Shown one piece after another: positions 2,813-64,000 of a stretch of 64,000 nt of DNA. Below the pieces are notes generated by a model. That model was not told the origin of the DNA. It did not search any database and worked only from the letters and a program-made list of their open reading frames with translations. The translations under genes were made by a program, and so were the position numbers. Location: the IMG/VR virus record IMGVR_UViG_3300049448_000779. One strand, written 5' to 3'. The stretch comes from an uncultured virus (IMG/VR IMGVR_UViG_3300049448_000779). Its lineage: Duplodnaviria; Heunggongvirae; Uroviricota; Caudoviricetes. Within the stretch, counting starts at the first letter, position 1. Each line of letters starts with the position of its first letter.

Positions 2813-3265
2813 ATGTATACCAGTAGGGCCGTGACCATCAACGTCAAGACGCTACCAAACGCCAACACGTTCGTGTTCATGGCTCGAGCTACACCAGGGC
2901 GGTGCCCAGCCAGCGCGCCGCACGCAGTGCCCACTATGACGAAACGATACCCAAGCGCAGCATCCCTCGCCGAGATCCCGCCGATTGATCCAGATACCGC
3001 ACGCATTTTTCACGGCAGAGGCGTGGAAGCGCGGGCCAATGTGCAGGCGTTCCTAGCCGCAGTGCGCGGCTCGGGCAGTAAGAGCCGATCGCTACGGCTT
3101 CCAGACGAGGCATGGGCCAGGCTCGAATCGCGCGCCCTTCAGCGCAAGATGCCGCTGTCCAAGCTGTTGCGCTGGATCGTGGCGGAGTACCTCTACACCA
3201 GCTCAGCCGCCGAGCGTCGCGCAGCGGCGCCCAAGCGAGCCGCCAAGCGAGCCGCCAAGCGCTGA
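2813..3265 (+). CDS. Ribbon-helix-helix (CopG-like) DNA-binding protein with basic KRAA tail; true start probably ~2937
   Basis: SRSLRLPDEAWARLESRALQRKMPLSKLLRWIV fits the RHH beta-alpha-alpha pattern. Confidence 0.55.
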   Translation: MYTSRAVTINVKTLPNANTFVFMARATPGRCPASAPHAVPTMTKRYPSAASLAEIPPIDPDTARIFHGRGVEARANVQAFLAAVRGSGSKSRSLRLPDEAWARLESRALQRKMPLSKLLRWIVAEYLYTSSAAERRAAAPKRAAKRAAKR

Positions 3266-3307
3266 CTTCCCATGGGGCGGAAGTCGCCGCTTGCACGTAG
3301 TACTCGT

Positions 3308-3472
3308 GCCGAGATCTCCAGGCGTCCCGATGCCTTTTGCGAGGGGGATCGATGGCATAGTTCGCTCCGCCGAAATCTCAAGGCGTCTCGGTGCCCTTTG
3401 TGAGTAAGGGGAGCTGTACTCGACAGCATCCACGTCGCCGAGATCTCAGGGCGTCTCGATGCCTTTTGCCAT
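3308..3472. repeat. Three imperfect 36-bp direct repeats separated by 25- and 32-bp unique sequence
   Basis: Copies at 3308-3343, 3369-3404 and 3437-3472 (consensus GCCGAGATCTCAAGGCGTCTCGATGCCTTTTGCGAG). Confidence 0.85.
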
Positions 3473-4613
3473 CAATGCAGCACTCACAGCGCGATTGCGC
3501 TGCCCGTTCGAGCGGTGTTCCTCACGAGCCGCTCGATAAAACAGGCCCTCATTCCAGAGTAGTTCACGCTCCTCGTCCTTACCGAGGGAGGCCGCCGGTA
3601 TGCCCGTCGCCGATCCGTGCATCGGACATGGGTAGGCTGCCAGTACCAGCATGCGCTGCGCGAGTTCCTCGCGGAAGCGATCGTCGTAGCCCCAGTCGAT
3701 TAGACACCCACAGCTGTGTTCAAGGGGCAGCCAATACAGTACCTCTGGGGGCGTCATGGTTGGGCAGCTTACCGGGCTTCCAGCTCGTTGGCACGCCTAC
3801 TCCTCGGGAGCGTCACTCCCATAGAGCCTTGACCCAGGAATAATTCGCCTCCTTGACGCGGCCTAACTCCGGCAAGGTTATGAATGCGCCCACGTACATG
3901 CCCAGCGATCGGTTGCGCTGATCCTCAGGCTTGACTTTTGCTGGGCTCAGAAACTACGAGGAAACCACATGCCCAAGCTCGAGCCCATTTGGCAGGAGAT
4001 CTTCAGCGCGGAGTTTCTGGGCAAGGTCCGAGATCTTCTGGCCGCCGCCCGTGATGTTGTCTACTACTCGCGCAACGGCGAGCCAGGGCGAGGCATCGAG
4101 CGGCTAGGCACAGCCATTGAAGCGCTCGACGCAGGGCTGTCTGGCATGGTTCGGCGCGAGTGAGGGGCCGCAAGTAATCCAGAATGCCGCAGGTCGCGCC
4201 TTTCCCACTCGACGAACTTGAAGCCGCTCATATCCAGACTCCCATGAGCTGCGGTTCGTCATGCACGCTGCGGTCCAGGAACTTCGTGCGCGGATAGGTC
4301 TTATTGACCCAGGCCTGAGCCCCCTCCAGGGTTGGGAAAAATACGCACCCCTGGGCGGGCGTTACCTTTGGGCCAAGCTGGCTGTAGAAGGCGCGCAGCA
4401 CGTAGAAGAGTGGCCAGTCCTTCGGGCGCTCGTACAGCGCGATAACCATCACCTCGTCCCATGCGGGCTTGCGCCATGGGGGAAAGAGGTCAATCGTGGC
4501 GCTAGACCTAGCTCGAGTGCTCGTGCCCTTGGTGCCGTTGGTTCGGTTACCCACTGTCACCATCCCTCATCGACCAGTAACGCTTGACACCCTAGGGGCG
4601 CAAGGTTCCACTC

Positions 4614-36743: not shown

Positions 36744-38042
36744 ATGAGCCTAGGAACCCTTTTGATTCTCCCTGGCCTCCCCGCTGTCCGTACGAAGCGC
36801 GGGGGGCTGATCATCACTAGGAAGTTCGTAGATGGTATGCGCAGCTACGCCGAGCGTTGGCCGGGTCGTGTCGCTACCTTGCTGAATGAGACCACTCAAG
36901 TCAGCAATAACCTGGACAACATCGAGGTCATGCCTGGCGAGCCTTTGCCGTTCGAGATCGACACGGTCAAGTTCGGCTCCACGGGAATGTACCGCCGGAT
37001 CGACCAGCTCGGCGATGTCTCGTGCGTGCTCGGCGGGCCTCACCACCAGCTGCACGGGCTTCCGCGCGAACTTCGCGCCCGCGGGATCATCTCCGTGCTG
37101 TGTTTCGAGTACTCGTTGAAGACGCGGCTTGACGTTATGCGCTCAGAGACGCGCAATCCGATTCGCTTGTTGCGTCGCGCTGCGTGGGAGGCGCGCGAAG
37201 AAATCCTGACGTTGTGGGACGTCACGGCGGCCCACGGGGTCCAATGCAATGGGACCCCGACATTCAATCGCTACCGGCGTCTCAGCGCTTCGGCCCATCT
37301 CTACTTCGACGCTCGGACTCCATCGAACGGCTTCGCCACCGAGAAGCATCAGCAGTTGCGTGCTGAACGTCTGCTGGGCAACGCGCAGCTGCACATTGCG
37401 TTCTCCGGGCGGCTTCTCAAAATGAAGGGCGCCCACCACCTGGTACAGATCGCACAAAGCCTTTTGCGGCGCCGTGTCAGGTTTCGAATGACGATCTGTG
37501 GTGGGGGTCCGCTTGCGAAGCCGATCGCACTCAGCATCAAGCGTGCTGGCCTCTCTTCTTACGTGAAGTTGGCCGGCACGCTCGACTTCGAGCGCGAGCT
37601 GCTTCCGATGATGCGCGAGGAAGTCGACTTGTTCATGGCCCCTCACGTGCAGGGCGACCCGAGCTGCACGTACCTCGAGACGCTCGCGTGTGGCGTGCCG
37701 ATCGTTGGCTATGCGAACGAGGCGTGGTCCGGGTTGCTCGATCGCGCAACCGTTGGCTGGGAGTCGCCACTCGGCAAGCCAGAGAAGCTAGCCAACTTGA
37801 TCGCTGGCCTCGATCGAAACGAAATCGTGGAACGCTCCGCGGAGGCTCTGAGATTTGCCAGTGAGCACAGCTTTGAGAGCACGTTCTCGCGCCGTGTCGA
37901 TCATCTAGTGGATCTCGTTCGTGAGCACAGAGCTTTCAGGGAGGTGGGTTATGAGGACCCTGGTTCTGTACGGGGGAACGGGAAAGAATTACCCCGGGGA
38001 GAGACTGGCTCAGGATCTCGGGATACCGTTATTCGACGGTGA
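36744..38042 (+). CDS. GT-B (GT4-like) glycosyltransferase
   Basis: FSGRLLKMKG and DLFMAPH...YLETLACGVPIVG motifs. Confidence 0.85.
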   Translation: MSLGTLLILPGLPAVRTKRGGLIITRKFVDGMRSYAERWPGRVATLLNETTQVSNNLDNIEVMPGEPLPFEIDTVKFGSTGMYRRIDQLGDVSCVLGGPHHQLHGLPRELRARGIISVLCFEYSLKTRLDVMRSETRNPIRLLRRAAWEAREEILTLWDVTAAHGVQCNGTPTFNRYRRLSASAHLYFDARTPSNGFATEKHQQLRAERLLGNAQLHIAFSGRLLKMKGAHHLVQIAQSLLRRRVRFRMTICGGGPLAKPIALSIKRAGLSSYVKLAGTLDFERELLPMMREEVDLFMAPHVQGDPSCTYLETLACGVPIVGYANEAWSGLLDRATVGWESPLGKPEKLANLIAGLDRNEIVERSAEALRFASEHSFESTFSRRVDHLVDLVREHRAFREVGYEDPGSVRGNGKELPRGETGSGSRDTVIRR

Positions 38043-41163: not shown

Positions 41164-43353
41164 ATGCTAGTCCAGAAGATCTACCTCCGGCCCTGCAACC
41201 AAGCCTCTATGGATCTCGCTCTCGGTGAGCTGATTCTGTATGGCGAATCACGGAACGCGTTGACGCGCATCCACAATAAATGGATGCGAATAGGTAACGC
41301 GCCGCTTGTCCCCGAGTACCAGACGATCGCTCAGGACTACCGAAATCACCCTCCCAAGACCGGCCGCCGCCCTACGCTACGATGCTTGGTGCAGTGCACG
41401 GGGCGACGGATCAAGGTGCACGACGATGATCCCAGCCGTGAAGAGAAGCTGCAAAAGGCAGCGGGGAAGGCGTGCAGAATGCAGCTTACCCAATCAGGGG
41501 GCGTAGAAACCAAGCTGGACAAGCTCCGGGAGAGCTGGGGGCTCGTAGAAGTCCTGGAGCATGATCGCCAGCGCTACCGAGTTCGGTGCTCGCAGCCCAA
41601 GTCGGCGCGGTCCCTGATTCCATCGCTCGAAAAGTGGATCAAAGCCAGTGCTCCGCTCGATGCCAAGCTGGACAAGTTCCGTAAGCGCTGGGGGCTCGTA
41701 GAAGTCCTGGAGCAGGATCATCAGAGCTACCGAGTTCGGTGCTCGCAGCCCAGATCGGAGCGAGCCCGGACTAAATCGCTCAAAAAGTGGGTCAAAGTCG
41801 GCGAGTCGCTCGACGCCAAGCTGGACAAGCTCCGTGAACACTGGGGGCTCGTAGAAGTCCTGGAGCAGGATCAGCAGCTCTACCGAGTTCGGTGCTCGCA
41901 GCCCAAGTCGGCGCGACCTCAATCGCTTGAAAAGTGGATCAAAGCCAGCGAGTCGCTCGACGCCAAGCTGGACAAGCTGCGCGAGAAGTGGGTCACGATC
42001 GAGATCCAGGACCGAGATCAAGGGCGTAGTGACCACGCGGAACTGCGTGCCGCCGATATGCGTGCCGTCTACGGTCGCCACGTCGAGGCCGGCGGCTATT
42101 ACGGGACCTTCCATCTTGCAAACGAGGCTGTGGCCTCCGCCGCCAAGGCCACCGAGGCTCGTGACTCTTTTGGGCGCTTGATCGTGCGTGAGCTGCGGGA
42201 GTCCGAGACCTCCGACGACGGGCGCGCAGCGATCGACCTCTCGCGCTTCCGCTGGGACGAGCAAGACCCGTGGATGGTCGAAATCCATGGCACCCGCTGG
42301 AGCTGCCATCGAGATCAGCTGATGGGCCGCCCACGCACTCCGGCCCAGGAGGCGGTGGGCCGCGAACGAGACAAGCTTGACCCGCGTCGGCCGCCCACGG
42401 ACGCCCGGGTCGTACGCGCGCACCTTCAGCGCGATCGGATGAGCCCTCCGAGCCGGCTCAACATCCGATGGAATTGGTACCTCGTCCTTACCCTTGATTG
42501 TGATTCCCCGGAGCGCGAGGTCTCCGAGGAACGCACAGAAGCTGGCCTCGACCTCTGCTGGCGTCAAACCGATGATGGCCTCTCGTACCGCGTAGCGTAC
42601 CTCGCAGACTCACGCGGGCGGGAACGCGAGATCACCGTGCCACGCACAGCGGTATCAGCGCTGCTGCACTACGAGCACATCAAATCCCTGGCTGATCTGG
42701 AGGCAGACCGTCTGCGCAAGATCCTGAAGCTCAGTGACCGCACCGGTCACCGTACGCTCGTGCAGCGTGCTCTAGAGCGTGATGGCCAACCCAGCCCCGA
42801 TTACCGGGATCGCGACTCCAGCACGTGGAATGCCTCCGAGATCGCGCATCATATGATCCACCTCGACGAGTACGCGCACCACGGCCGCAGCAATGCTCTC
42901 GCCCAGAGAGACGGGCACTACCTCCACGAGATACACACAATCCTGCGCGAGCAGAAGGTGATCTACTGCGAGGACATGGAGGGCGACAAAGCGCTGGTCA
43001 CCAAAGAAGGGGGCGGCAAGGCTCGCGATCAGCGGCAACAAACGGCGCCGTTCACCTTCCTGCGCTTGCTACAGCGCGAGGCGCCCAAGTTCGGCGCTGT
43101 AATCGAGCTGCGTGAGCCCGCTTACACATCGCGCATTTGCGACGTTTGCGGGCATGACATGGGCGCCTCGAGCCAGCTATGGCGGCGGTGTCAGAAGTGC
43201 GGGACACGGCACGATGTGGATGCGCTGGCGGCTCGCAATATCCGGTGTGGTGTGAGCGGCCCGGTGACACCTGAACTCCAGGGTGTGGGTCCTCACAATG
43301 ACAATGTTCACGAGGACAGGAAGCCGCTCCGAAAGCGACGAACGAAGCATTAG
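41164..43353 (+). CDS. tnpB: TnpB/Cas12-superfamily RuvC protein (Cas12m/V-U1-like motif I) with internal tandem repeats
   Basis: RuvC-I AGLDLCWR, RuvC-II IYCEDM, PAYTSRICDVC...CQKC zinc finger, RuvC-III HDVDALAARNI. Confidence 0.8.
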   Translation: MLVQKIYLRPCNQASMDLALGELILYGESRNALTRIHNKWMRIGNAPLVPEYQTIAQDYRNHPPKTGRRPTLRCLVQCTGRRIKVHDDDPSREEKLQKAAGKACRMQLTQSGGVETKLDKLRESWGLVEVLEHDRQRYRVRCSQPKSARSLIPSLEKWIKASAPLDAKLDKFRKRWGLVEVLEQDHQSYRVRCSQPRSERARTKSLKKWVKVGESLDAKLDKLREHWGLVEVLEQDQQLYRVRCSQPKSARPQSLEKWIKASESLDAKLDKLREKWVTIEIQDRDQGRSDHAELRAADMRAVYGRHVEAGGYYGTFHLANEAVASAAKATEARDSFGRLIVRELRESETSDDGRAAIDLSRFRWDEQDPWMVEIHGTRWSCHRDQLMGRPRTPAQEAVGRERDKLDPRRPPTDARVVRAHLQRDRMSPPSRLNIRWNWYLVLTLDCDSPEREVSEERTEAGLDLCWRQTDDGLSYRVAYLADSRGREREITVPRTAVSALLHYEHIKSLADLEADRLRKILKLSDRTGHRTLVQRALERDGQPSPDYRDRDSSTWNASEIAHHMIHLDEYAHHGRSNALAQRDGHYLHEIHTILREQKVIYCEDMEGDKALVTKEGGGKARDQRQQTAPFTFLRLLQREAPKFGAVIELREPAYTSRICDVCGHDMGASSQLWRRCQKCGTRHDVDALAARNIRCGVSGPVTPELQGVGPHNDNVHEDRKPLRKRRTKH
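41511..41990 (+). repeat. In-frame tandem repeat (153, 153, 147 bp plus a partial fourth unit)
   Basis: Unit starts CAAGCTGGACAAG at 41511, 41664, 41817 and 41964; encodes KLDKLR..WGLVEVLEQD....RVRCSQP. Confidence 0.95.
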
Positions 43354-46846: not shown

Positions 46847-47575
46847 TTAGAGCCCCATGAAACCGTGGACGAGGACGCCCCGGCCATTCTTGCCGTCGTT
46901 CTCGGTCCAGTACATCAACCCGACCAGGGCGCCGTCGTCATCAAAGATCGGGCCTCCGCTATCCCCGTGGCAGACGCACCCAGCCAAGAACAACACGCGA
47001 TTGAGTTGGTGGAGAGCGATCGCCGGTCGCTGTAGAGGCAGGGTCTCCGGCCCTTGAATGCACCCGTACCCTTCTAGAGTCAACGCCATTGAGGCTTTAG
47101 TGGCAATCTCGGCTGGCTTGATCTCTAGTGGCTCGGCCACCTGGAGCAGCGCGATGTCTTGCTGAGGGTCTGGACTACGGAGCGTGACCTCAAAGCTCCG
47201 TCCATCGATTGTCGACACCGAGTCCCCAACTAGAGTTCCACCATTCTGCTCGATGCAGTGCTTGGCCGTCAGCACCGATCGAGGCCCGACGACAACCCCA
47301 GAACAGCCCAAGCTGTGTTCTTCGGTCTCTACCGGCGTTGTGATCGTAAACCGGTGCGTGATCCGCACAACCTGTGGATTGACGCTGTACAGGAAGGGTC
47401 GACAGTATTGGGACTCGTCGAAAACGAAGTCGTTCAGGTTTTCCTCGGCTACCCCTGGCAACCTCTCTACTGGCGTCCGGAACTGGAGCGTGCCAGGCCT
47501 CTTCAGCGGGGCAGGCACAAGGCCAAAAGCGGCGCAGGCGAGACCTGTAGCAAGCAGCCTGACGACACTGGGCAC
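46847..47575 (-). CDS. Secreted trypsin-like (S1) serine protease
   Basis: VLTAKHC, DIALL and GDSGGP triad motifs; signal-like N-terminus. Confidence 0.9.
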   Translation of the reverse strand: MPSVVRLLATGLACAAFGLVPAPLKRPGTLQFRTPVERLPGVAEENLNDFVFDESQYCRPFLYSVNPQVVRITHRFTITTPVETEEHSLGCSGVVVGPRSVLTAKHCIEQNGGTLVGDSVSTIDGRSFEVTLRSPDPQQDIALLQVAEPLEIKPAEIATKASMALTLEGYGCIQGPETLPLQRPAIALHQLNRVLFLAGCVCHGDSGGPIFDDDGALVGLMYWTENDGKNGRGVLVHGFMGL

Positions 47576-52649: not shown

Positions 52650-53579
52650 ATGGCGTGCTTAGCTAGCTCGACCGGGGAAAATCGTTTCAGTCCAGCTGAC
52701 GTCTCAAGCGCGGACTTCGGTCAAGCGCTCGAGCAAGACGGCTACGTGATCATCGAGGACGTGCTGAGCGCTGACGAGCTGCTCGAGCTGAACGCACAGA
52801 TCTCCGGCCAGCTCGCGAGCACCATGCCTGACTACGGCAATGCCTTCATGGGAGAGAAAACCAAGCGATTCGGCCGTCTGCTCTATCGCATCCCAGCAAG
52901 TCGCGAGATCGTCCGGCACCCATTCGTGCTGAGCGTGCTGAACTCAACCCTTCGGCTGTTCAGCCCGACATACCAGGTACACTTCACCTCCGTGATGCAT
53001 GTGATGGAAGGCGAAAAGGCCCAGGTCCTGCATCGAGACATCTCGCCCTTCCCCAACCAAGGTCCGACTGTGGTCATCGCGACCATGTGGGCAGCCAGCG
53101 CCTTCACGCGCGACAACGGCGCGACCGTGCTTGTCCCGGGCAGCCATTTGTGGCCCGACGCTCGTTTCCCCACTAAAGAAGAGCTGCGCGTCGCAGAGAT
53201 GCGCGCTGGCTCGCTGCTGATCTACCGAGGCAACCTCATCCACGGCGCTGGCGCCTGTAAACGCGGGTCTCGCACCGGCGTGGCTCTCCAGTACTGCGTC
53301 GGGTGGATGCGTCAAGAAGAGAATCAGTACCTTGCGGTTCCGCTGGAAGTAGCCCGCACACTGCCCGAGGATCTTCAACGGATCATGGGTTACGACCTGG
53401 CAGCACGTCACTGGGGTTATGTTGACCAGCTGCACCCCCTGAACTTCCTACACGAGACTGATCGCTATGGCGGGCTGGACCCAGACGGGTACCAATTCCC
53501 AGGGCAAGTGGTGGCGCTGCGGGCCGTTCCCGATGGGATCCACATTGATCATCGTTACCCAATCACACTCGACGATTAA
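52650..53579 (+). CDS. PhyH-family 2OG-Fe(II) dioxygenase
   Basis: LEQDGYVIIEDVL, QVLHRD, FTRDNGATVLVPGSH, HGAG and GWMRQEENQYL. Confidence 0.9.
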   Translation: MACLASSTGENRFSPADVSSADFGQALEQDGYVIIEDVLSADELLELNAQISGQLASTMPDYGNAFMGEKTKRFGRLLYRIPASREIVRHPFVLSVLNSTLRLFSPTYQVHFTSVMHVMEGEKAQVLHRDISPFPNQGPTVVIATMWAASAFTRDNGATVLVPGSHLWPDARFPTKEELRVAEMRAGSLLIYRGNLIHGAGACKRGSRTGVALQYCVGWMRQEENQYLAVPLEVARTLPEDLQRIMGYDLAARHWGYVDQLHPLNFLHETDRYGGLDPDGYQFPGQVVALRAVPDGIHIDHRYPITLDD

Positions 53580-55411: not shown

Positions 55412-56053
55412 ATGCTCTGGAGAATCGATGCAAGCGGACCATTTGCGCTCTGGACGCCGCCATGTTTTCGTGCGGAACGCTACAGTCAACTCGTTGGCTC
55501 CCATGATGCTATGGCGGGCCTTCTGCGCGGGGTGTTAGGTCACCGCGGAATGAACTGGACAATCCATGCAGTCCACATCCTCAGTGAGCCAAGATACTTG
55601 GGTCTCACCCAAAACGAACTGAAGTTTGACGGCGTCGGACCATTCAGTCGACATGAACGACAACATACGCAACGGCGCAATACCTATCTGCTCGATGTCC
55701 GGTACATCATCGAGGCAAGCATCATCCTCTCGAGCCGCGCCGATCCAAGCGATACCATCGAGAAGTTCAATTCGATGTTTGGCGAGCGCCTGCAGAAAGG
55801 GAAGCAGCGACGACAGACCTACTTTGGGATTCGCGAGTGCATGGCATTAGTTGACCCGTGGGGCGGGCCAGTGCCACCCGCTATCAACGTAACGCAAGAG
55901 CTGGGCATCTGCTACTACGGCACGGATTTCGACGATCCGGAGACCCCGCAGTACTTTGCGCCTCTCTCCGTTATGAGCGGGGTCGTCCACTATCCGAGCT
56001 GGGATCATGTTCGCAGCCTTGGGATTGCCCGCCGTACGCGAAGGAGCGCGTAG
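55412..56053 (+). CDS. cas5: Type I-C Cas5 (Cas5c/Cas5d), divergent
   Basis: GPFALWTPP..RAERYS, NE, QR...LLDVRYIIEA and YFGIREC motifs. Confidence 0.9.
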   Translation: MLWRIDASGPFALWTPPCFRAERYSQLVGSHDAMAGLLRGVLGHRGMNWTIHAVHILSEPRYLGLTQNELKFDGVGPFSRHERQHTQRRNTYLLDVRYIIEASIILSSRADPSDTIEKFNSMFGERLQKGKQRRQTYFGIRECMALVDPWGGPVPPAINVTQELGICYYGTDFDDPETPQYFAPLSVMSGVVHYPSWDHVRSLGIARRTRRSA

Positions 56054-56055
56054 CC

Positions 56056-57774
56056 ATGGACCTACTTGCTTCGCTCACGCGCTATGGCGAACGAGTCGGA
56101 TTGAAGCCGCTCCTCCGTGACAAGAAGTTCGTCGAGGTCTGGTGTCTTGACCTTGACACAGGGGCGTTAGCACACGTCAAAAGTACGACGCTGAAACTAC
56201 CCCAACCTGTGGCGCGCGGCTCTAATGCCGCCACTACCCCGAACCGCACCTTCGACTACGCGAAGTACGTCACGAATCGAGAGTCAGCGTTCTGGGGTCT
56301 TCTGCTGGCCATACTGAATGAGTCCAGAACGCTGACCGCCAAAGTCAACGCTCTTCTGGCCAACACGAACTGGCACGTGAAACTCGTCACCGACGAAATC
56401 ATCTTCACTGACGGGATTGGCCATGCTCATACCCTGAGTGCGACAGCAGACGTGGTCCTAATGTGTAAGGGCCAAGCGTTAGCCGAGCACCAAGTTGTAC
56501 AAAAATGGTTATCCGTACAGACCGATGATGGCATCGGGACGGCTGCGTGCCTCATTACCGGCGAGCAGCGTCCCATCTCGCGCCTGCATCACGGGATCCG
56601 AGCCGGCACGGACAAACTCGTCTCTCACAATGAGTCATCATCTTGCTATTTTGGCCTGAAGCCGAGCCAAAACTTTCAGGTCTCGGTGAGAGCAGCGGAG
56701 CTGTACGCTTCCGGTCTTTCCTACTTGATGGACACTCGCCGCGAACCGGCGAATTCGATGATGATCGTTAAGGACGTGTCCTTGGTGGTCTGGCCAGATC
56801 GCGAAGGGATCACTCATCCCATCATTTCCGCCGCGATCACAGTGCTGCGCACGTTCCCGGCCGGCGCTTCTAAACCCAAAGAGCAACAGGCGGCCTTGGC
56901 CAAACTAGAAATTGCCTGGCGCGAAATCGATGCTACTGCTGACACTGACAGCACAGACCTGTGCATGGCGATTCTTGGGTTTCGGATGAATCGCTACATA
57001 CCAATTGCGTATGGGCACACGACTGCCGCACAGTTGAAAACAGCTCTGCAGTTGTTTCGCGCGGAGTTTGAAGGGTCCACGTTCCGCCAAGTTGCTGGCG
57101 TCTGGATCAGCGAAGCCGGCAAGGTCCTAGATGATGTGCTCTATACGGTTCTTTGGGCCGTTCTGACTGGCAAGCCCTACCCACTCAAAGTGACACACCT
57201 TAATCGGCACAATGTCCGCGACTACACAAAATTCCGTTGGTTCAATGCCTACAATCACCGAAAAGGTGCACCCCTGATGTCGTCATACAAGAAAATCTCT
57301 AAGGAGTTCGAGCAGGCACCGACACGTGACCAGTATTACAACCCTGAGTTGTTGGCGCAGCTGAACAAGTTCTATTTGTTCGGGCAACTGGTCGACGTCT
57401 ACTGTCGGCTCAAACAGCTCGCGCAACATAAGAACTCGGTCAAGCCGGCAGTTCAACTGAAGATCGCCCTGGGCTCCCCGCAGCGTATCTACTCGCGGAT
57501 GCTCGAAGACGGAGTGTTTCAGGTCGAGAAAATCCGCCAGAAGGGTCGCAATCCCGAATGGGAACGCGAATTCAACCGCATCGTGGCAGATTACTACAGA
57601 GGTGGCATTGGCACCCTTCCAGCCAGGCTGTCAACCGAGGAGCGCGAACTCGTTACCCTCGGCTATTGGAGCCAGAAGCTGTACGCCCAGCATCTCTTGA
57701 CTCACTGGAGCATACTCCGCCTCAGAAAAGAAGACCGCAGCAGTGATGGGGCTGCCCCCGCTCCAGCTGAATGA
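56056..57774 (+). CDS. cas8c: Type I-C large subunit Cas8c (Csd1), divergent; probable internal Cas11c start at 57277
   Basis: CLITGEQRPISRLH...LVSHN...NFQVSVRAAELY..GLSYL; C-terminal YLFGQL...LGYW; lies between cas5 and cas7. Confidence 0.85.
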   Translation: MDLLASLTRYGERVGLKPLLRDKKFVEVWCLDLDTGALAHVKSTTLKLPQPVARGSNAATTPNRTFDYAKYVTNRESAFWGLLLAILNESRTLTAKVNALLANTNWHVKLVTDEIIFTDGIGHAHTLSATADVVLMCKGQALAEHQVVQKWLSVQTDDGIGTAACLITGEQRPISRLHHGIRAGTDKLVSHNESSSCYFGLKPSQNFQVSVRAAELYASGLSYLMDTRREPANSMMIVKDVSLVVWPDREGITHPIISAAITVLRTFPAGASKPKEQQAALAKLEIAWREIDATADTDSTDLCMAILGFRMNRYIPIAYGHTTAAQLKTALQLFRAEFEGSTFRQVAGVWISEAGKVLDDVLYTVLWAVLTGKPYPLKVTHLNRHNVRDYTKFRWFNAYNHRKGAPLMSSYKKISKEFEQAPTRDQYYNPELLAQLNKFYLFGQLVDVYCRLKQLAQHKNSVKPAVQLKIALGSPQRIYSRMLEDGVFQVEKIRQKGRNPEWEREFNRIVADYYRGGIGTLPARLSTEERELVTLGYWSQKLYAQHLLTHWSILRLRKEDRSSDGAAPAPAE

Positions 57775-58041: not shown

Positions 58042-59004
58042 ATGACAACAGCAACAGTTACGACTCTGCCAGTTAAATCCGAGATCTATGACAGGCGTAC
58101 GGACATGGTCCTAATCACCAGCGCGATCTGGAGCGTGCTTCAAGGCAACCCTGACGAAGATAACGCGCGCCGCCAAGACCCAGACACTTTGCAGGGTATT
58201 ATGACCCCCCAGTGCCTCAAGTACAAATTGCGCCAGTGGTTGGAGCAGCATGGCTACGCACTGTTCATTAAGCCTGGCGGTGCGGCTTTGGAGCAGTTGA
58301 TCTATAATGTGCTCACGGATGTTGGAATCGATCCCAGTAAAATCTCTGCCGAGGCCGACGACGAAGACGCAGATGAAGACAACGAGACTGAAGGCAAGCC
58401 CAAAAACAAGGGCAAGAAGAGCAAGAACCGCGTACTGCGACAAGATGAGATCCGCGACACTGTGCGTCGTCTTTGCGCTGATTACGCGGATGTTCGTTGG
58501 TTCGGCGCTGTCCTGACGAAGCCAGTGAATTGGCCCATCACCGGCCCCATCCAGATGGGATTTTCGATGAGCGTTGATCCGGTGTACAGCCAAGAGCTGG
58601 GCATCACTCGCTCCGCCGTGACCAGAATCGACGACCTGAAATTGAAGAATCGAGACATGGGTCGTATGTCCATGATCCCTTTCGAGGTTTGTACTACGCC
58701 GATCTCGATTGATCCGTTTCGGGCTCGCGCCACTGGGTTCACGTATGCCGACCACGAAATGCTTATCAGTGGACTCCGGGAAATGTACGACATGACCCGG
58801 TCTACGCTCCGCTCGGGTGTGTGCGCCGAGAAGCTGGTAATCTTCCATCACGATAGTCCCTACGGCAACGCTCGGGCGCTCAAGCTGTTCCGCCGCGTCC
58901 AGATTAAGTCGAGTGTGCCCAACTCGCGTTCCTTCAAAGACTGGACGGTTGACGTCGATACCACTGGGCTCAATGGCGTATCCGTCGAGGTTCTCGATCT
59001 CTAG
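58042..59004 (+). CDS. cas7: Type I-C backbone Cas7c (Csd2)
   Basis: QGNPDEDNARRQDPDT...CLKYKLR, DVRWFGAV, GPIQ, ITR, MGR, TGFT and HDSPYGNA. Confidence 0.92.
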   Translation: MTTATVTTLPVKSEIYDRRTDMVLITSAIWSVLQGNPDEDNARRQDPDTLQGIMTPQCLKYKLRQWLEQHGYALFIKPGGAALEQLIYNVLTDVGIDPSKISAEADDEDADEDNETEGKPKNKGKKSKNRVLRQDEIRDTVRRLCADYADVRWFGAVLTKPVNWPITGPIQMGFSMSVDPVYSQELGITRSAVTRIDDLKLKNRDMGRMSMIPFEVCTTPISIDPFRARATGFTYADHEMLISGLREMYDMTRSTLRSGVCAEKLVIFHHDSPYGNARALKLFRRVQIKSSVPNSRSFKDWTVDVDTTGLNGVSVEVLDL

Positions 59005-59061: not shown

Positions 59062-61470
59062 ATGCAATTGCGCCACTACCAGACCGATGACTTCCTGAAA
59101 CTCGTAGAGGCTCTATCGGTTCTCAAGAGCTTGGGTGTGGATTACGCTACAGGGGGTGGCAAAACCGTTTTGAGCCTGGCGGCCGCGGCCTGGGTGATAC
59201 AGAAAGGCGTATTTGATCGTGCGCTGGTTTTGACGCTTGGTACCGCAATCGTGAACCAGTTCCTTGCGTTGTCCAACGAGTGGATCCACCCCACGAACGA
59301 TGAGTTCGAGCCATTCTCTCTTGGCGAGATCAGGTCGGCATTGAATGGGTTGGAGTTGGAGCGTTGGCTCACGCCCTTGCTCACTGATGACCCGCGTCCG
59401 CGCATACTCGTCACTACGCACCAGATGTTCACAACGAATCTTTCCTCGGTCGAAAAGTCTCTACTACGTGACCGTCGGACGTTGATCGTTGTCGATGAGC
59501 CACAGTATGCCCCTTGGATCGAGGGTAAGGCGGCAGCATGCGAACCCGGCCAGGAGGATGAGGGTCGCCAGCAGCACATTCTCGGTCGGGCGATCACTCG
59601 TTTGCAACTTGCCGGCTCAGTGGTGGCTAAGTTTACCGGAACTCCGAGTCGAACTGATGGGCTACCGGTTTTCTCCAAAGACGACTACACAGAGGTGACA
59701 CGCTCTCTTCACCAGCTGATGCTCTACGGGATGTGCCCTCAGTATCTGCACAGCAGAATCGTGCACGTCGATAGCAGTTCAGTTGATGACGGCGACACCT
59801 GCTTGGCTCCGCTGGACCCTAACAAGGGTAGCGAGGCTGTTCGTTCTATGAGGAATGACTACGATTGGATTCCCGCTTGCACTAGAGTCAAACCCGGGTC
59901 CCGTGAAGACAATCAGGAAGTGGTTGCCAAGATTCTCGCGCGTGATCCGAGCGCCATCAACGCCTCCGGCGACAATGCTACAGAATATTTTGATGCGCTG
60001 GGTCGAGAGTCTGCATGTCTCAAAAACAGAACTGCGGTCTACAGCGACTACCAGACCAATTTAGTCGGGATGACGCGGCCGGTCACAGGGGTGGACTCGC
60101 CCTCGCGAGCCCTGGGAATCTTCTATGGAATCCCAAAATCCATGAACGTGTTCAGGCAGTTCATGGGGCGAATTCTCCGGCGCAAGGTGGGGGACGACGG
60201 AAAGCCACTCTATATTGGCTACCCTGAAGCGTGGCTGAACCGGGTCCAGCTGGTGTTCGTGATTGGCGGCTTACCCAGTGAAGCCCATCGTAGGGAAGAG
60301 CATCTCGGCATTCTCTTCAGAGCGCTAGCGCTGGCTGAGTCTCTCAATCAAGCGGGGATGCTTGGCCGCATGTTCGCGCGCTACTATGACGGTCTGACTC
60401 GGACTCCTGGCCGCGGTCTTCCACCAGGTAAGGAGAAGGAGATCCTCGACGTCGTCACAGGAGAGGCTCCAACACTCTTGCTAGAAGCGGAGCTGGACAT
60501 TTTAGGCACGGCATCAGAGCTGGATGACGTTGGGTATCAGACTCTAAAGCTTGATGGAAAATTCAGGTATATGGAAGGCTGGCTCCGAGCGCACACTCGA
60601 TTGATGGCCGAGGCAGAAGGCGTTCCGCAGTCTGGCATCCAGGCGATCATCGACGCGGCGGTACTGAAACACCTGCCTAGCATCAAAGCCCTGTTGACTG
60701 CACGTACGATGGCTCAGCCGCAGCATGAGACGCGGGTACAGGCAGTCTTAGAGCAAATCCCAGACCAGTCGCTGCAAGACCAGGTACAGGCACTGTTCGA
60801 GGAGTTCAAGGCTGACGTTTGTGCGTTAGACAACAGCGCCTATGTCCTGGACGCTCGGCTGATTGAATACCATCGGACCAAGGCCGCGCTGATCTTTAAG
60901 CGGGTGCAGCCTCTTGATTCGACCGACGCGATTCTGGAGCGCGTTCAGGCGCACCGCGATCGCCACGACGGGCAATACCCCGAACTAGATCAGCGCGATC
61001 CGATTGACTCTCGCATCACCTTCAAGACGCATGACCAGCATCTAAGGACCGGCCATTACGCCGAGTTCACGGGCGAGCTTGGTGAGTTGCTCTACATGAG
61101 ATGTGAGCGCACCTCTTGGTGGGACGATGCCCGGGAGGTTGAAGCCCTCTATCACAAGCTGTTGCGCAATGGGTCGCCGGAGGTGGCGGCTGTTATCAAG
61201 AGCGAAGGCAAAGACAAGCTGGGAAGAATGCGGGCCGCCTTTGGTGACCGCGTGGTGGTGCGGTACTATCCTCGCGCCCTGCTTGTTGCAACCGCGAGAG
61301 ATAGCACTGGCGACTTCATCTGCTCTGAGGACTTCCTCCGACAGCTGACACTTCCAGAAGCCCAGAGGTTAGGGGGCGCTCAACGGCTCGTCACCGTGCT
61401 CAAGGCGCATCAGTTGACGTTCGATACGAGAGGGATGACGGCGGTCCGCGAAAGGTTGGGCTTCCTGTGA
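59062..61470 (+). CDS. SF2 helicase (Res/RadD-like, no HD domain) occupying the cas3 position
   Basis: Q-motif LRHYQ at residues 3-7, Walker A ATGGGKT, DEPQ, TGTPSRTDG, motif VI QFMGRILR. Confidence 0.85.
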   Translation: MQLRHYQTDDFLKLVEALSVLKSLGVDYATGGGKTVLSLAAAAWVIQKGVFDRALVLTLGTAIVNQFLALSNEWIHPTNDEFEPFSLGEIRSALNGLELERWLTPLLTDDPRPRILVTTHQMFTTNLSSVEKSLLRDRRTLIVVDEPQYAPWIEGKAAACEPGQEDEGRQQHILGRAITRLQLAGSVVAKFTGTPSRTDGLPVFSKDDYTEVTRSLHQLMLYGMCPQYLHSRIVHVDSSSVDDGDTCLAPLDPNKGSEAVRSMRNDYDWIPACTRVKPGSREDNQEVVAKILARDPSAINASGDNATEYFDALGRESACLKNRTAVYSDYQTNLVGMTRPVTGVDSPSRALGIFYGIPKSMNVFRQFMGRILRRKVGDDGKPLYIGYPEAWLNRVQLVFVIGGLPSEAHRREEHLGILFRALALAESLNQAGMLGRMFARYYDGLTRTPGRGLPPGKEKEILDVVTGEAPTLLLEAELDILGTASELDDVGYQTLKLDGKFRYMEGWLRAHTRLMAEAEGVPQSGIQAIIDAAVLKHLPSIKALLTARTMAQPQHETRVQAVLEQIPDQSLQDQVQALFEEFKADVCALDNSAYVLDARLIEYHRTKAALIFKRVQPLDSTDAILERVQAHRDRHDGQYPELDQRDPIDSRITFKTHDQHLRTGHYAEFTGELGELLYMRCERTSWWDDAREVEALYHKLLRNGSPEVAAVIKSEGKDKLGRMRAAFGDRVVVRYYPRALLVATARDSTGDFICSEDFLRQLTLPEAQRLGGAQRLVTVLKAHQLTFDTRGMTAVRERLGFL

Positions 61471-62192
61471 GTACCTACGATAAGGATGCTTGGCGAAAGT
61501 TCAACGTTCACTTTCTCTCGAGTTGCCGGGGACTCTGGTCCGATGGAAAACTCAAGTTCAGCTACTACGAACTGGTCGGACTGTCAGGGTCCAAGATGTA
61601 TGATCTGCTCAAGGAGATGCTGTATACACCGAAACAGTTCATCGGGGTGGATCAAAGCCCTGAGGTGGTGCTGTACCATCGTATGAATCGGGCTCCCTGG
61701 ACAACGTGTCTGGTCAAGGACGGCTACCTTAAGGCGGAGCAGGTGGCGTCTCTTTCGGCGAGTCAGCGCGAGCCATTCGGGATTGCTCCGTATCCGATCG
61801 CGATCTACGGCTTCGACGACCACGCGAGTATTGGCCTGCAATCTTGGTGGGACACGGAAGCAAGCCAGCTTCGGCAGATCGTCGCCAAGACACTAGAACA
61901 GACTGGCGTGTGTTGCTTGATCTTGAACAACACTCTCGACCGAAACCCGGACCGGCACAAGGCGGTAGCGGAACACACGCGCCGACTCTGCTTAGCGTTC
62001 GAAGGTTGGGGCCTAAAAGAAGAGGCCCTACTCGGACCTAACCGCAGATTCTTGAACTGCATCGTCGAGAGACCGTCAGGGCATTTCGGTGGCTACGAAG
62101 TATACAAGAGCCTCGACCGCGCCCTGCGCATGGCGACGATTAGACTTGAGTTCACTAAGACCCGCGGCGTGCGGGTATGGAAAGGCGAGTGA
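61467..62192 (+). CDS. Putative class I SAM-methyltransferase-fold protein, coupled to the helicase
   Basis: GTGA overlap with the helicase stop; YYELVGLSG, FIGVDQSPEVV, VKDG, IAIYGFDD, CLILN and a terminal beta-hairpin, in Rossmann MTase order. Confidence 0.5.
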   Translation: MSTYDKDAWRKFNVHFLSSCRGLWSDGKLKFSYYELVGLSGSKMYDLLKEMLYTPKQFIGVDQSPEVVLYHRMNRAPWTTCLVKDGYLKAEQVASLSASQREPFGIAPYPIAIYGFDDHASIGLQSWWDTEASQLRQIVAKTLEQTGVCCLILNNTLDRNPDRHKAVAEHTRRLCLAFEGWGLKEEALLGPNRRFLNCIVERPSGHFGGYEVYKSLDRALRMATIRLEFTKTRGVRVWKGE

Positions 62193-62197
62193 GAGAT

Positions 62198-62416
62198 ATG
62201 GAACGATTGGACTCTGAGAAAGTGTATCAGTATATCGGCAAGTCGGTTCGCACCACCCAGGACATCGCGAAGCACTTCAAGGTGCGCGCTGGCCAGGCTG
62301 CGGCTGCTGTTGCGATTCTCCGCATCAAGGGGACGGTGGTGCCGGCAATTCCCAAGAAGGATTTTGAGGGGGTCAGCCGATGGTGCCGGACTTCGAGCGC
62401 TTCCGCGGCTCGCTAA
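62198..62416 (+). CDS. Small winged-HTH-like protein (72 aa)
   Basis: EKVYQYI...TTQDIAKHFKVRAGQAAAAVAILRIKGTV helix-HTH-wing pattern. Confidence 0.6.
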   Translation: MERLDSEKVYQYIGKSVRTTQDIAKHFKVRAGQAAAAVAILRIKGTVVPAIPKKDFEGVSRWCRTSSASAAR

Positions 62417-62581
62417 CCCCAGGGAGCGCTCGCGTTCGGGTGGTTCTTTGACAATTCCATATGTTATCTGCTCAGCCTCGCGTGCTCTCCCAAGTGAGGT
62501 GGGGGCATCAAGCACGCCTGGTGGCAGGCGCTCGCAGAAGACGCTGCGAGTTGCTTGGTTTGAGTGCCCGTAGCGACGAGG
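62417..62581 (+). promoter_or_regulatory. CRISPR leader with a boxA-like element (62443-62454) and multibranch structure
   Basis: GTTCTTTGACAA; nested inverted repeats across 62476-62581. Confidence 0.65.
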
Positions 62582-64000
62582 GTAGCAAGGGGCTTTGGAG
62601 CCCCGAGTGATTGAAATATATAGCCGCGGATTGTCCGGATCCGGACGTCGAGGTAGCAAGGGGCTTTGGAGCCCCGAGTGATTGAAATGTGACCAGCTCA
62701 GCCTGCCTGGTTAGTTCCTCTAAGTAGCAAGGGGCTTTGGAGCCCCGAGTGATTGAAATGAGGGCGACCGACTGCATGAAGACGAGCGTCTTGAAGTAGC
62801 AAGGGGCTTTGGAGCCCCGAGTGATTGAAATGTCCTGGAGCGACCCACTGATCGGCTCGTATTCGCGCTTGTAGCAAGGGGCTTTGGAGCCCCGAGTGAT
62901 TGAAATAGGGCGGCGGTGGAACGGGCCAGTTCGAGGAAGTGGGTAGCAAGGGGCTTTGGAGCCGCGAGTGATTGAAATGCCGCGACCCCGGAAGGCTGCG
63001 TCCCGCAGGTCGACGTGTAGCAAGGGGCTTTGGAGCCCCGAGTGATTGAAATCTACCAGAGCCTGCGCGAGCGGCTCGAGCAGATCATCGTAGCAAGGGG
63101 CTTTGGAGCCCCGAGTGATTGAAATTCCAGCTCCCCCTTCACTTCATCGAGCCCAGCGACCGCGTCGTAGCAAGGGGCTTTAAGAGCCCCGATTGGTTGA
63201 AATTTGACGTAGTGCGTCTCGGCGATCTCAACCGAGTGCCCGGTAGCAGGGGACTGTGAGGCCCCGATTGGTTGAAATATCGATGGCCAGATTCTTGACC
63301 GCTTCCTCCGACCGCGTAGCAGGGGGCTGTGAGGCCCCGATTGGTTGAAATAACTCAAACGGATCACGCCGGACCCGAACACCCCAAGTAGCAGGGGGCT
63401 GTGAGGCCCCGATTGGTTGAAATGCGAGCACCCGGGAGCCAGCCTTCTTCGCACCCAGGTAGCAGGGGGCTGTGAGGCCCCGATTGGTTGAAATGCCGCA
63501 GGCGTCCTTCTGAACGCCGTCGACAACGGGAGTAGCAGGGGGCTGTGAGGCCCCCGATTGGTTGAAATCTCCGCGTGCGCGGCGTAACGAGCAACAAGCG
63601 GTGCGGGTAGCAGGGGGCTGTGAGGCCCCCGATTGGTTGAAATGGGAGGCCGTCTGCGAACCACTTTTGAGCGCCCCGCAGTAGCAGGGGGCTGTGAGGC
63701 CCGATTGGTTGAAATAACCTCTTCGGCGAGCTGGCCCTCGATCTCGACCTAGTAGCAGGGGGCTGTGAGGCCCCCGATTGGTTGAAATTTGAATGGTCAC
63801 GGTCGCATAGAGCGACTCAAACACGGGTAGCAGGGGGCTGTGAGGCCCCGATTGGTTGAAATAAGCGGACATCGAGCGAGTTGGTCTCGCAGTCGAGGTA
63901 GCAGGGGGCTGTGAGGCCCCGATTGGTTGAAATCCCGTGAAGGGGAGGACACGTTGTCCAGATTGGTTCGTAGCAGGGGGCTGTGAGGCCCCGATTGGTT
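62582..64000 (+). CRISPR. CRISPR array: 20 repeats (last truncated by window end), 19 spacers of 35-41 nt, two repeat types
   Basis: Repeats 1-8 GTAGCAAGGGGCTTTGGAGCCCCGAGTGATTGAAAT; repeat 9 hybrid; repeats 10-20 GTAGCAGGGGGCTGTGAGGCCCCGATTGGTTGAAAT; the TTGAAAT 3' end gives + orientation. Confidence 0.99.

Follow-up and report, generated by a model that had tools for sequence, protein, structure and literature searches.

Huge phages encode a variant of the type I-C CRISPR system in which a helicase stands in place of Cas3 (Al-Shayeb et al. 2020, PMC7162821). The locus considered here lies at the end of a 64,000-nucleotide stretch of DNA, referred to as the window, from an uncultured virus of the Caudoviricetes (IMG/VR record IMGVR_UViG_3300049448_000779), a huge phage from soil. 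It shares with that variant a Cas5d-like Cas5, Cas8c, Cas7, the helicase replacing Cas3 and the lack of adjacent Cas1 and Cas2, as well as its occurrence on phage contigs longer than 400 kb with a Cas12-like gene elsewhere on the same genome piece. An I-C Cascade with a non-Cas3 helicase, the lack of cas1 and cas2 and a huge phage genome place it in the variant, as far as the available part of the description goes. What is added here is a fifth gene, called gene X, which overlaps the helicase gene, together with the protein family of X, its predicted fold and a small open reading frame (ORF) of probable winged helix-turn-helix (wHTH) type. The main text of the 2020 paper, in the part available, treats the helicase and Cas5 and no fifth gene, and the word ‘methyltransferase’ does not occur in it; eight of its ten supplementary files hold no annotation of the I-C locus. 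The accessible part of the 2025 CRISPR classification (PMC12669027) mentions neither the huge-phage I-C variant nor any methyltransferase. Full-text literature searches, whose coverage excludes most subscription journals, returned no description of gene X. As far as found, gene X and the small ORF represent new CRISPR-associated families, and the system itself is a known rarity.

Gene X is a real gene. It has six close homologues, and when 1.84 billion cluster representatives were searched exhaustively with a profile, 124 proteins matched at E ≤ 0.001 (E ≤ 1e-10 for 79 of them, E ≤ 1e-30 for 11); this rules out a chance ORF. Nearly all of the 124 are 200-280 amino acids long and matched over their full length, and a word-based search that used the family profile contributed no more than two further proteins, neither of them named. 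The helicase ORF ends in ...TTC CTG TGA, so that the GTG start of X (61467-61469) and the helicase TGA (61468-61470) have the four nucleotides GTGA in common, an overlap that the initial annotation of this DNA had already described. A GAAAGG sequence is found about 12 nt 5′ of this start. Residues 1-43 are kept among homologues (with an invariant K6 and conserved W9, R10 and N13), which indicates that the long GTG start is correct and that the public gene call P0001 (198 amino acids), which like the ESM Atlas record begins X at M44, is too short. Starting at M44 drops window positions 61467-61595 and with them the conserved N-terminal helix that carries the invariant K6. Contigs from four other soil or rhizosphere sequencing runs (X2-X5, from different coded studies) show not one difference from the window over positions 61300-62450 and are therefore uninformative on selection; no RNA run is listed among the sequencing runs with this DNA.

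The product of gene X had been proposed, from the letters of the sequence alone, to adopt an S-adenosylmethionine (SAM)-methyltransferase fold. The peptides quoted for this proposal are all present in the translation (YELVGLSG at residues 34-41, FIGVD at 58-62 and IYGFDD at 113-118), and the structural check with AlphaFold2 and Foldseek yields a predicted fold of the class I Rossmann type. The AlphaFold2 model, built from a six-sequence alignment, has a mean predicted local distance difference test (pLDDT) score of 83.2 and a predicted template-modelling (pTM) score of 0.85. Strand 1 (residues 32-36) is followed by the glycine loop, strand 2 (58-62) ends in D62, strand 4 (111-116) leads into D117-D118, and the C-terminal strands span residues 210-214, 221-230 and 234-237. 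Strands and helices alternate along the whole model, which displays the seven-stranded sheet and antiparallel terminal hairpin of class I methyltransferases; the alternation, the glycine loop, the acidic end of strand 2, the acidic strand 4 and the hairpin all fall where they had been read from the sequence. With 241 amino acids, the model consists of the core fold only, devoid of a target-recognition domain.

Comparison of the model with known structures supports the assignment of the predicted structure to the class I methyltransferase fold. Foldseek gave 18 matches in the PDB at E ≤ 0.001, nearly all of them SAM-dependent methyltransferases, with modest TM-scores of 0.3-0.45. Matches among predicted viral structures (BFVD) are methyltransferases too, and the ESM Atlas leads, to be taken as leads only since every score is below 0.9, name class I methyltransferases. 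The scores level off across families whose substrates are RNA, proteins, lipids or small molecules. The fold is established and the substrate is not indicated. Neither fold nor motifs support a nuclease or a Cas6-like protein, and both candidates were rejected. Pfam, NCBIfam, PADLOC and PHROGs contain no match to X.

Conservation was followed in an alignment of 66 of the 130 family sequences: the window X, 60 representatives with one match each that spans the full length, and five close homologues. Matches that were short or in two pieces were excluded. Five residues (K6, D117, N154, M222 and R226) are invariant, and W9, G38, W128, G208, Y213 and T224 are conserved in at least 90% of the sequences. 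The position of E35, which ends strand 1 in the model, is acidic in 64 of the 66 (E in 54, D in 10). It opens a motif I-like segment of the form E35-x-x-G38-x-(S/T)-G41, one residue shorter than the usual GxGxG, whose loop glycines are present in 61 (G38) and 51 (G41) members. At D62, which closes strand 58-62, 49 members have D, 14 have E and three have N; the D85 column, following strand 3, keeps D in 58. No member of the 66 replaces D117, after strand 4, or N154, in strand 5, and N154 and D158 map to the end of strand 5. Three features singled out by the initial annotation, namely the motif I-like loop, the acidic strand-2 end and the acidic strand 4, are thus among the best conserved columns. 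In class I methyltransferases, SAM (at strands 1-3) and the substrate are held at the C-terminal edge of the sheet and catalysis takes place after strand 4; in the model, the conserved residues of X sit at this same edge of the parallel sheet. After strand 4 the family has the consensus D-(T/D)-(T/x)-N, which is not the catalytic motif of amino- or C5-DNA methyltransferases, and the DPPY/NPPY and PC motifs that had been reported missing are indeed so, as neither a PP nor a PC dipeptide occurs anywhere in the translation. An aspartate invariant at the catalytic position, together with the other invariant polar residues, argues against a decayed, inactive protein, and X looks like a working divergent enzyme. 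The family is basic, with a median isoelectric point of 9.1, a value that would fit nucleic-acid binding.

The link of X to Cascade is likewise borne out. The cas5c, cas8c and cas7 genes stand directly 5′ of the helicase-X pair and a CRISPR array stands 3′ of it, and this arrangement recurs in other lineages. A search with the close X alignment led to a viral contig of 411,618 bp (L001). A degenerate DNA pattern covering X residues 208-226, to which only 23 of the 130 family sequences conform, returned L001 again, a second viral contig of 437,331 bp (L003) and four metagenome contigs (L004-L007); all matches are true family members (hmmsearch E-values of 7e-53 to 1e-80). Since the X of L006 is identical to that of L005, six independent lineages could be compared, namely the window, L001, L003, L004, L005 and L007, in which X shows 25-63% pairwise identity. 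At every locus with enough flanking sequence, the order is Cas5d-like gene, Csd1, Cas7, ResIII helicase and X as fifth gene, and X directly follows the helicase in five of the six lineages. In these five the two genes overlap, through GTGA in the window, through the 4-nt ATGA in L003, L004 and L005 and through a single nucleotide in L001 (TAATG), which suggests co-production of X with the helicase. Where the flanks suffice, CRISPR arrays are found on one or both sides of the operon (59 repeats in L001, 51 in L003). Homologues occur on contigs that measure 453, 411 and 437 kb; two of these contigs belong to a viral collection. Other searches gave less: the helicase alignment retrieved the L001 contig only, two proteins used as single queries (P0130 and P0007) found no match in the viral collection, and tblastn of X against GenBank phages found none. 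No X-family member was detected in 185,579 prokaryotic species genomes (one genome each) by the degenerate pattern or the close alignment, both scans being of low sensitivity.

The partner of X is a superfamily 2 (SF2) helicase devoid of nuclease domain, as judged from its sequence and those of its relatives. Six aligned helicase orthologues keep the SF2 ATPase motifs GGGKT, DE(A/P)Q and QFxGRxLR and display neither an HD domain nor a conserved cluster of acidic residues and histidines that would point to a nuclease. The best PDB matches of the helicase profile are two Cas3 chains (E-values of 1.6e-4 and 1.8e-4), followed by XPB and the R subunit of a type I restriction enzyme; the single helicase sequence has no PDB match. 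Residues 27-192 align to approximately residues 269-426 of Cas3, past the HD domain, and the helicase begins at the RecA1 core. It is therefore not the HD-fused Cas3 of type I-C. Because the ATPase motifs are intact and no nuclease motif is conserved, X is the only other conserved candidate enzyme of the operon.

Given these features, X may be a SAM-using enzyme that is co-produced with the helicase and acts with it at Cascade-bound targets, a reading that we prefer tentatively and with less than even confidence. X would be a small (about 240 amino acids), basic enzyme of class I methyltransferase fold that binds SAM in the canonical crevice and, with the HD-less Cas3-like SF2 helicase, would constitute the effector of the huge-phage type I-C variant. 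Cas5c, Cas8c and Cas7 with the CRISPR RNA (crRNA) would find the DNA target and open an R-loop. The helicase would then be recruited as Cas3 would be and move along the DNA at the expense of ATP, and X, carried by the helicase or located beside it, would methylate nucleic acid at or around the target. X has no target-recognition domain of its own. Interference would then proceed through marking or silencing, and the system may mark its targets rather than cut them. The most specific form of this proposal is a natural CRISPR-guided methylation machine in which Cascade picks the site, the HD-less helicase reels in the DNA and X writes methyl marks along the track; it is possible, and we consider it doubtful.

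Several observations weigh against a helicase-coupled SAM-using enzyme. Motif I is atypical (E-x-x-G-x-(S/T)-G instead of E/D-x-G-x-G-x-G), G41 is missing in 15 of the 66 aligned members and the position of D62 is N in three. None of the 66 matches a methyltransferase family in Pfam at E ≤ 0.1, where only five unrelated single hits appear, the X profile found no methyltransferase among PDB sequences, and neither a (D/N)PP(Y/F) nor a PC motif follows strand 4. In L007, where the locus is on the reverse strand, the helicase gene and X do not overlap and are separated by about 200 nt containing a 90-amino-acid ORF in another frame; furthermore, genomic context was sampled for six lineages, to be set against 124 family representatives. 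The presence of the fold and of the ligand-crevice residues, yet of no recognized catalytic motif after strand 4, would suit an X that binds SAM or another adenosine ligand with no methyl transfer and that licenses or tethers the helicase in the role of an allosteric or adaptor subunit. For helicase action, restriction enzymes of types I and III depend on a SAM-binding methylase subunit, and here the X gene is tightly coupled to that of a helicase carrying the ResIII domain of restriction enzymes. Such a role is nevertheless unlikely: D117 is invariant exactly at the catalytic position, and N154, K6 and R226 are invariant across sequences of about 25% identity, whereas pure sensors usually drift more on the substrate side.

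Catalysis directed at the system itself, with X as an RNA or protein methyltransferase acting on the crRNA (for example, by 2′-O or base methylation that stabilizes guides inside the host) or on a Cas subunit, would suit a small protein devoid of DNA target-recognition domain, many of whose best structural neighbours act on RNA (METTL16, RlmJ, RlmM, fibrillarin, HEN1, Bud23 and TrmB). These neighbours are, however, tied with small-molecule and protein methyltransferases, we know of no other CRISPR system that needs guide methylation, and coupling to the helicase, and not to the guide-processing cas5c, would be left unexplained, which makes this decidedly unlikely. The small ORF found 3′ of X in the window, L001, L003 and L005, and a database protein (P0101) in which X is fused to a MarR-like wHTH, evoke a regulatory pair instead, that is, a SAM-responsive regulator or C-protein-like controller of the operon or array that is not an effector; fusions of HTH and methyltransferase domains do occur in bacterial regulators. 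The overlap of the X start with the helicase stop in five of six lineages suggests that X and the helicase are produced together, and the fusion is represented by one database protein, short at its N terminus and linked weakly to the small ORF (hhalign probability 17%), so that a regulatory pair appears very improbable. Phages often carry orphan methyltransferases, and X could in principle be an ordinary one that merely adjoins the CRISPR operon and serves, for example, in self-protection against host restriction. This is hardly credible: position and overlap are kept in lineages whose X proteins are only 25-36% identical, X matches no known DNA methyltransferase family, and the low-sensitivity scans of species genomes found no member of the family.

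Features of the CRISPR locus in the window (positions are those of the 64,000-nucleotide stretch)
Feature	Position	Strand	Description
cas5c	55412..56053	+	213 amino acids; Pfam Cas_Cas5d E 9.7e-11; NCBIfam type I-C Cas5c E 7.6e-18, below curated cut-off
cas8c/csd1	56056..57774	+	Pfam Cas_Csd1 E 4.6e-26; NCBIfam Cas8c E 4.2e-19, below cut-off
cas7/csd2	58042..59004	+	320 amino acids; Pfam Cas_Cas7 E 4.1e-50; NCBIfam type I-C Cas7 E 5.3e-45, below cut-off
SF2 helicase	59062..61470	+	802 amino acids; Cas3-core-like, without HD nuclease domain; Pfam ResIII E 2e-11, residues 1-146
GTGA overlap	61467..61470	+	Start of gene X and stop of helicase gene, read from the sequence
Gene X	61467..62192	+	241 amino acids; GTG start; protein of predicted class I methyltransferase fold, founder of an unnamed family
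Small conserved ORF	62198..62416	+	72 amino acids; probable winged helix-turn-helix
Presumed leader	62417..62581	+	From small ORF to first repeat
CRISPR array	62582..64000	+	20 repeats, found by repeat search; runs past the window end

The last 9 kb of the window form a single tightly packed plus-strand operon, in the order cas5c-cas8c-cas7-helicase-X-small ORF, followed by the CRISPR array. The three Cascade genes exceed the Pfam gathering scores and, with the adjacent array, have the composition of a type I-C locus. The ATG of cas8c at 56056 is preceded by GAAGGAG, the longest ORF formally beginning at a GTG (55858) within cas5c. No cas1, cas2 or cas4 gene was found among ORFs of at least 95 amino acids at 44-64 kb of the window. 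Just 5′ of cas5 in L001, an ORF at 3065-4024 (+) encodes a Myb-like DNA-binding domain (Pfam E 1.6e-6).

Homologues of the small ORF (66-85 amino acids) are found directly 3′ of X in L001 (10778-10978), L003 (10080-10337) and L005 (8406-8663), with an invariant AAAxxAILRIK block. None of the Pfam matches of the small ORF is above the cut-off. In P0101, the C-terminal domain fused to X is MarR-like (Pfam MarR_2 E 6e-5, below the cut-off), and it aligns weakly with the small ORF (hhalign E 0.0015). From sequence comparison, the small ORF is probably a winged helix and looks like the sixth conserved gene of the operon.

The array of the window contains two 36-nt repeat variants that differ in their stems and both end in TTGAAAT, with a switch around 63166-63243. 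Mixing of repeat variants, with paired (compensatory) stem changes and a constant 3′ TTGAAA(C/T) tail, is also seen in L001 (11178-15716), L003 (1555-3490 and from 11078 onward) and L005 (35-1570). Long arrays (51-59 repeats) occur even though neither cas1 nor cas2 is nearby. No spacer of the window array matches GenBank phages.

Elsewhere in the window, positions 41164-43353 (+) encode a protein of 729 amino acids whose C-terminal part carries a Cas12f1-like TNB domain (Pfam E 5e-12). In the PDB it matches a Cas12m and designed RNA-guided nucleases, all weakly; around this gene, the stretch from 38 to 46 kb of the window contains no repeat array. A second effector, of a type V-like kind, has been reported for phages of this sort, and the protein may be that effector. 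Other ORFs with an assignment encode a PhyH-type dioxygenase (52650-53579), a trypsin-like protease (46847-47575) and a group 1 glycosyltransferase (36744-38042). The remaining ORFs mostly have no family match and no tRNA was found in the window, in keeping with a huge phage genome.

Among CRISPR systems carried by mobile elements, those without a nuclease recruit helicases, as in type IV-A, or transposases, as in CRISPR-associated transposons; to our knowledge and from the searches made here, none recruits a methyltransferase. If methylation of nucleic acid by X were guided by Cascade and the helicase, it would represent a natural epigenetic writer guided by RNA, the first in prokaryotes or their viruses, would explain how the huge-phage I-C variant interferes in the absence of Cas3, and would offer a compact natural template for programmable methylation. 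With such a machine, a huge phage could silence genes of its host or of rival phages with no cut, or flag them for methyl-dependent nucleases of the host. Even if X were only a SAM-binding regulatory subunit, CRISPR interference would be tied to the architecture of restriction-modification enzymes, and X and the small winged-helix ORF would each define a new CRISPR-associated gene family.

Canonical type I-C systems (Cas3-Cas5c-Cas8c-Cas7-Cas4-Cas1-Cas2) share with the present locus the order of the Cascade genes, a similar repeat hairpin, the 3′ TTGAAAT and a distantly Cas3-like helicase core. The locus differs from them by the lack of an HD nuclease domain, by the absence of visible cas1, cas2 and cas4 and by its two extra genes, X and the small ORF. 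Type IV-A systems with DinG are also class 1 systems of mobile elements, devoid of nuclease and adaptation genes, that use a helicase for non-nucleolytic interference, and the accessible part of a preprint draws the same parallel (bioRxiv 10.1101/2023.06.23.546257). Their Cas proteins and helicase family are different from those found here. We know of no methyltransferase-fold partner in type IV-A.

Outside CRISPR biology, the protein resembles in its predicted structure the class I SAM-dependent methyltransferases, such as METTL16, RlmJ, METTL13 and small-molecule C-, N- and O-methyltransferases, with which it shares the seven-stranded sheet, the terminal hairpin, an N-terminal capping helix, the acidic residue that ends strand 2 and a glycine loop following strand 1. 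It differs from them by the absence of detectable sequence similarity, by a motif I shortened to GxxG and by D-(T/D)-x instead of (D/N)PP(Y/F) after strand 4. In type I and type III restriction-modification enzymes (HsdM/HsdR and Mod/Res), a ResIII-type SF2 translocase works with a SAM-binding methyltransferase subunit, and the two are encoded by neighbouring, often overlapping genes. The present locus likewise combines a ResIII-type SF2 helicase with a methyltransferase-fold protein whose gene overlaps that of the helicase. It departs from these enzymes in that X has neither a match to HsdM or Mod nor a target-recognition domain, and in that the helicase has no nuclease domain. The likeness is an analogy of working parts and not membership, with specificity that would come from Cascade and its crRNA.

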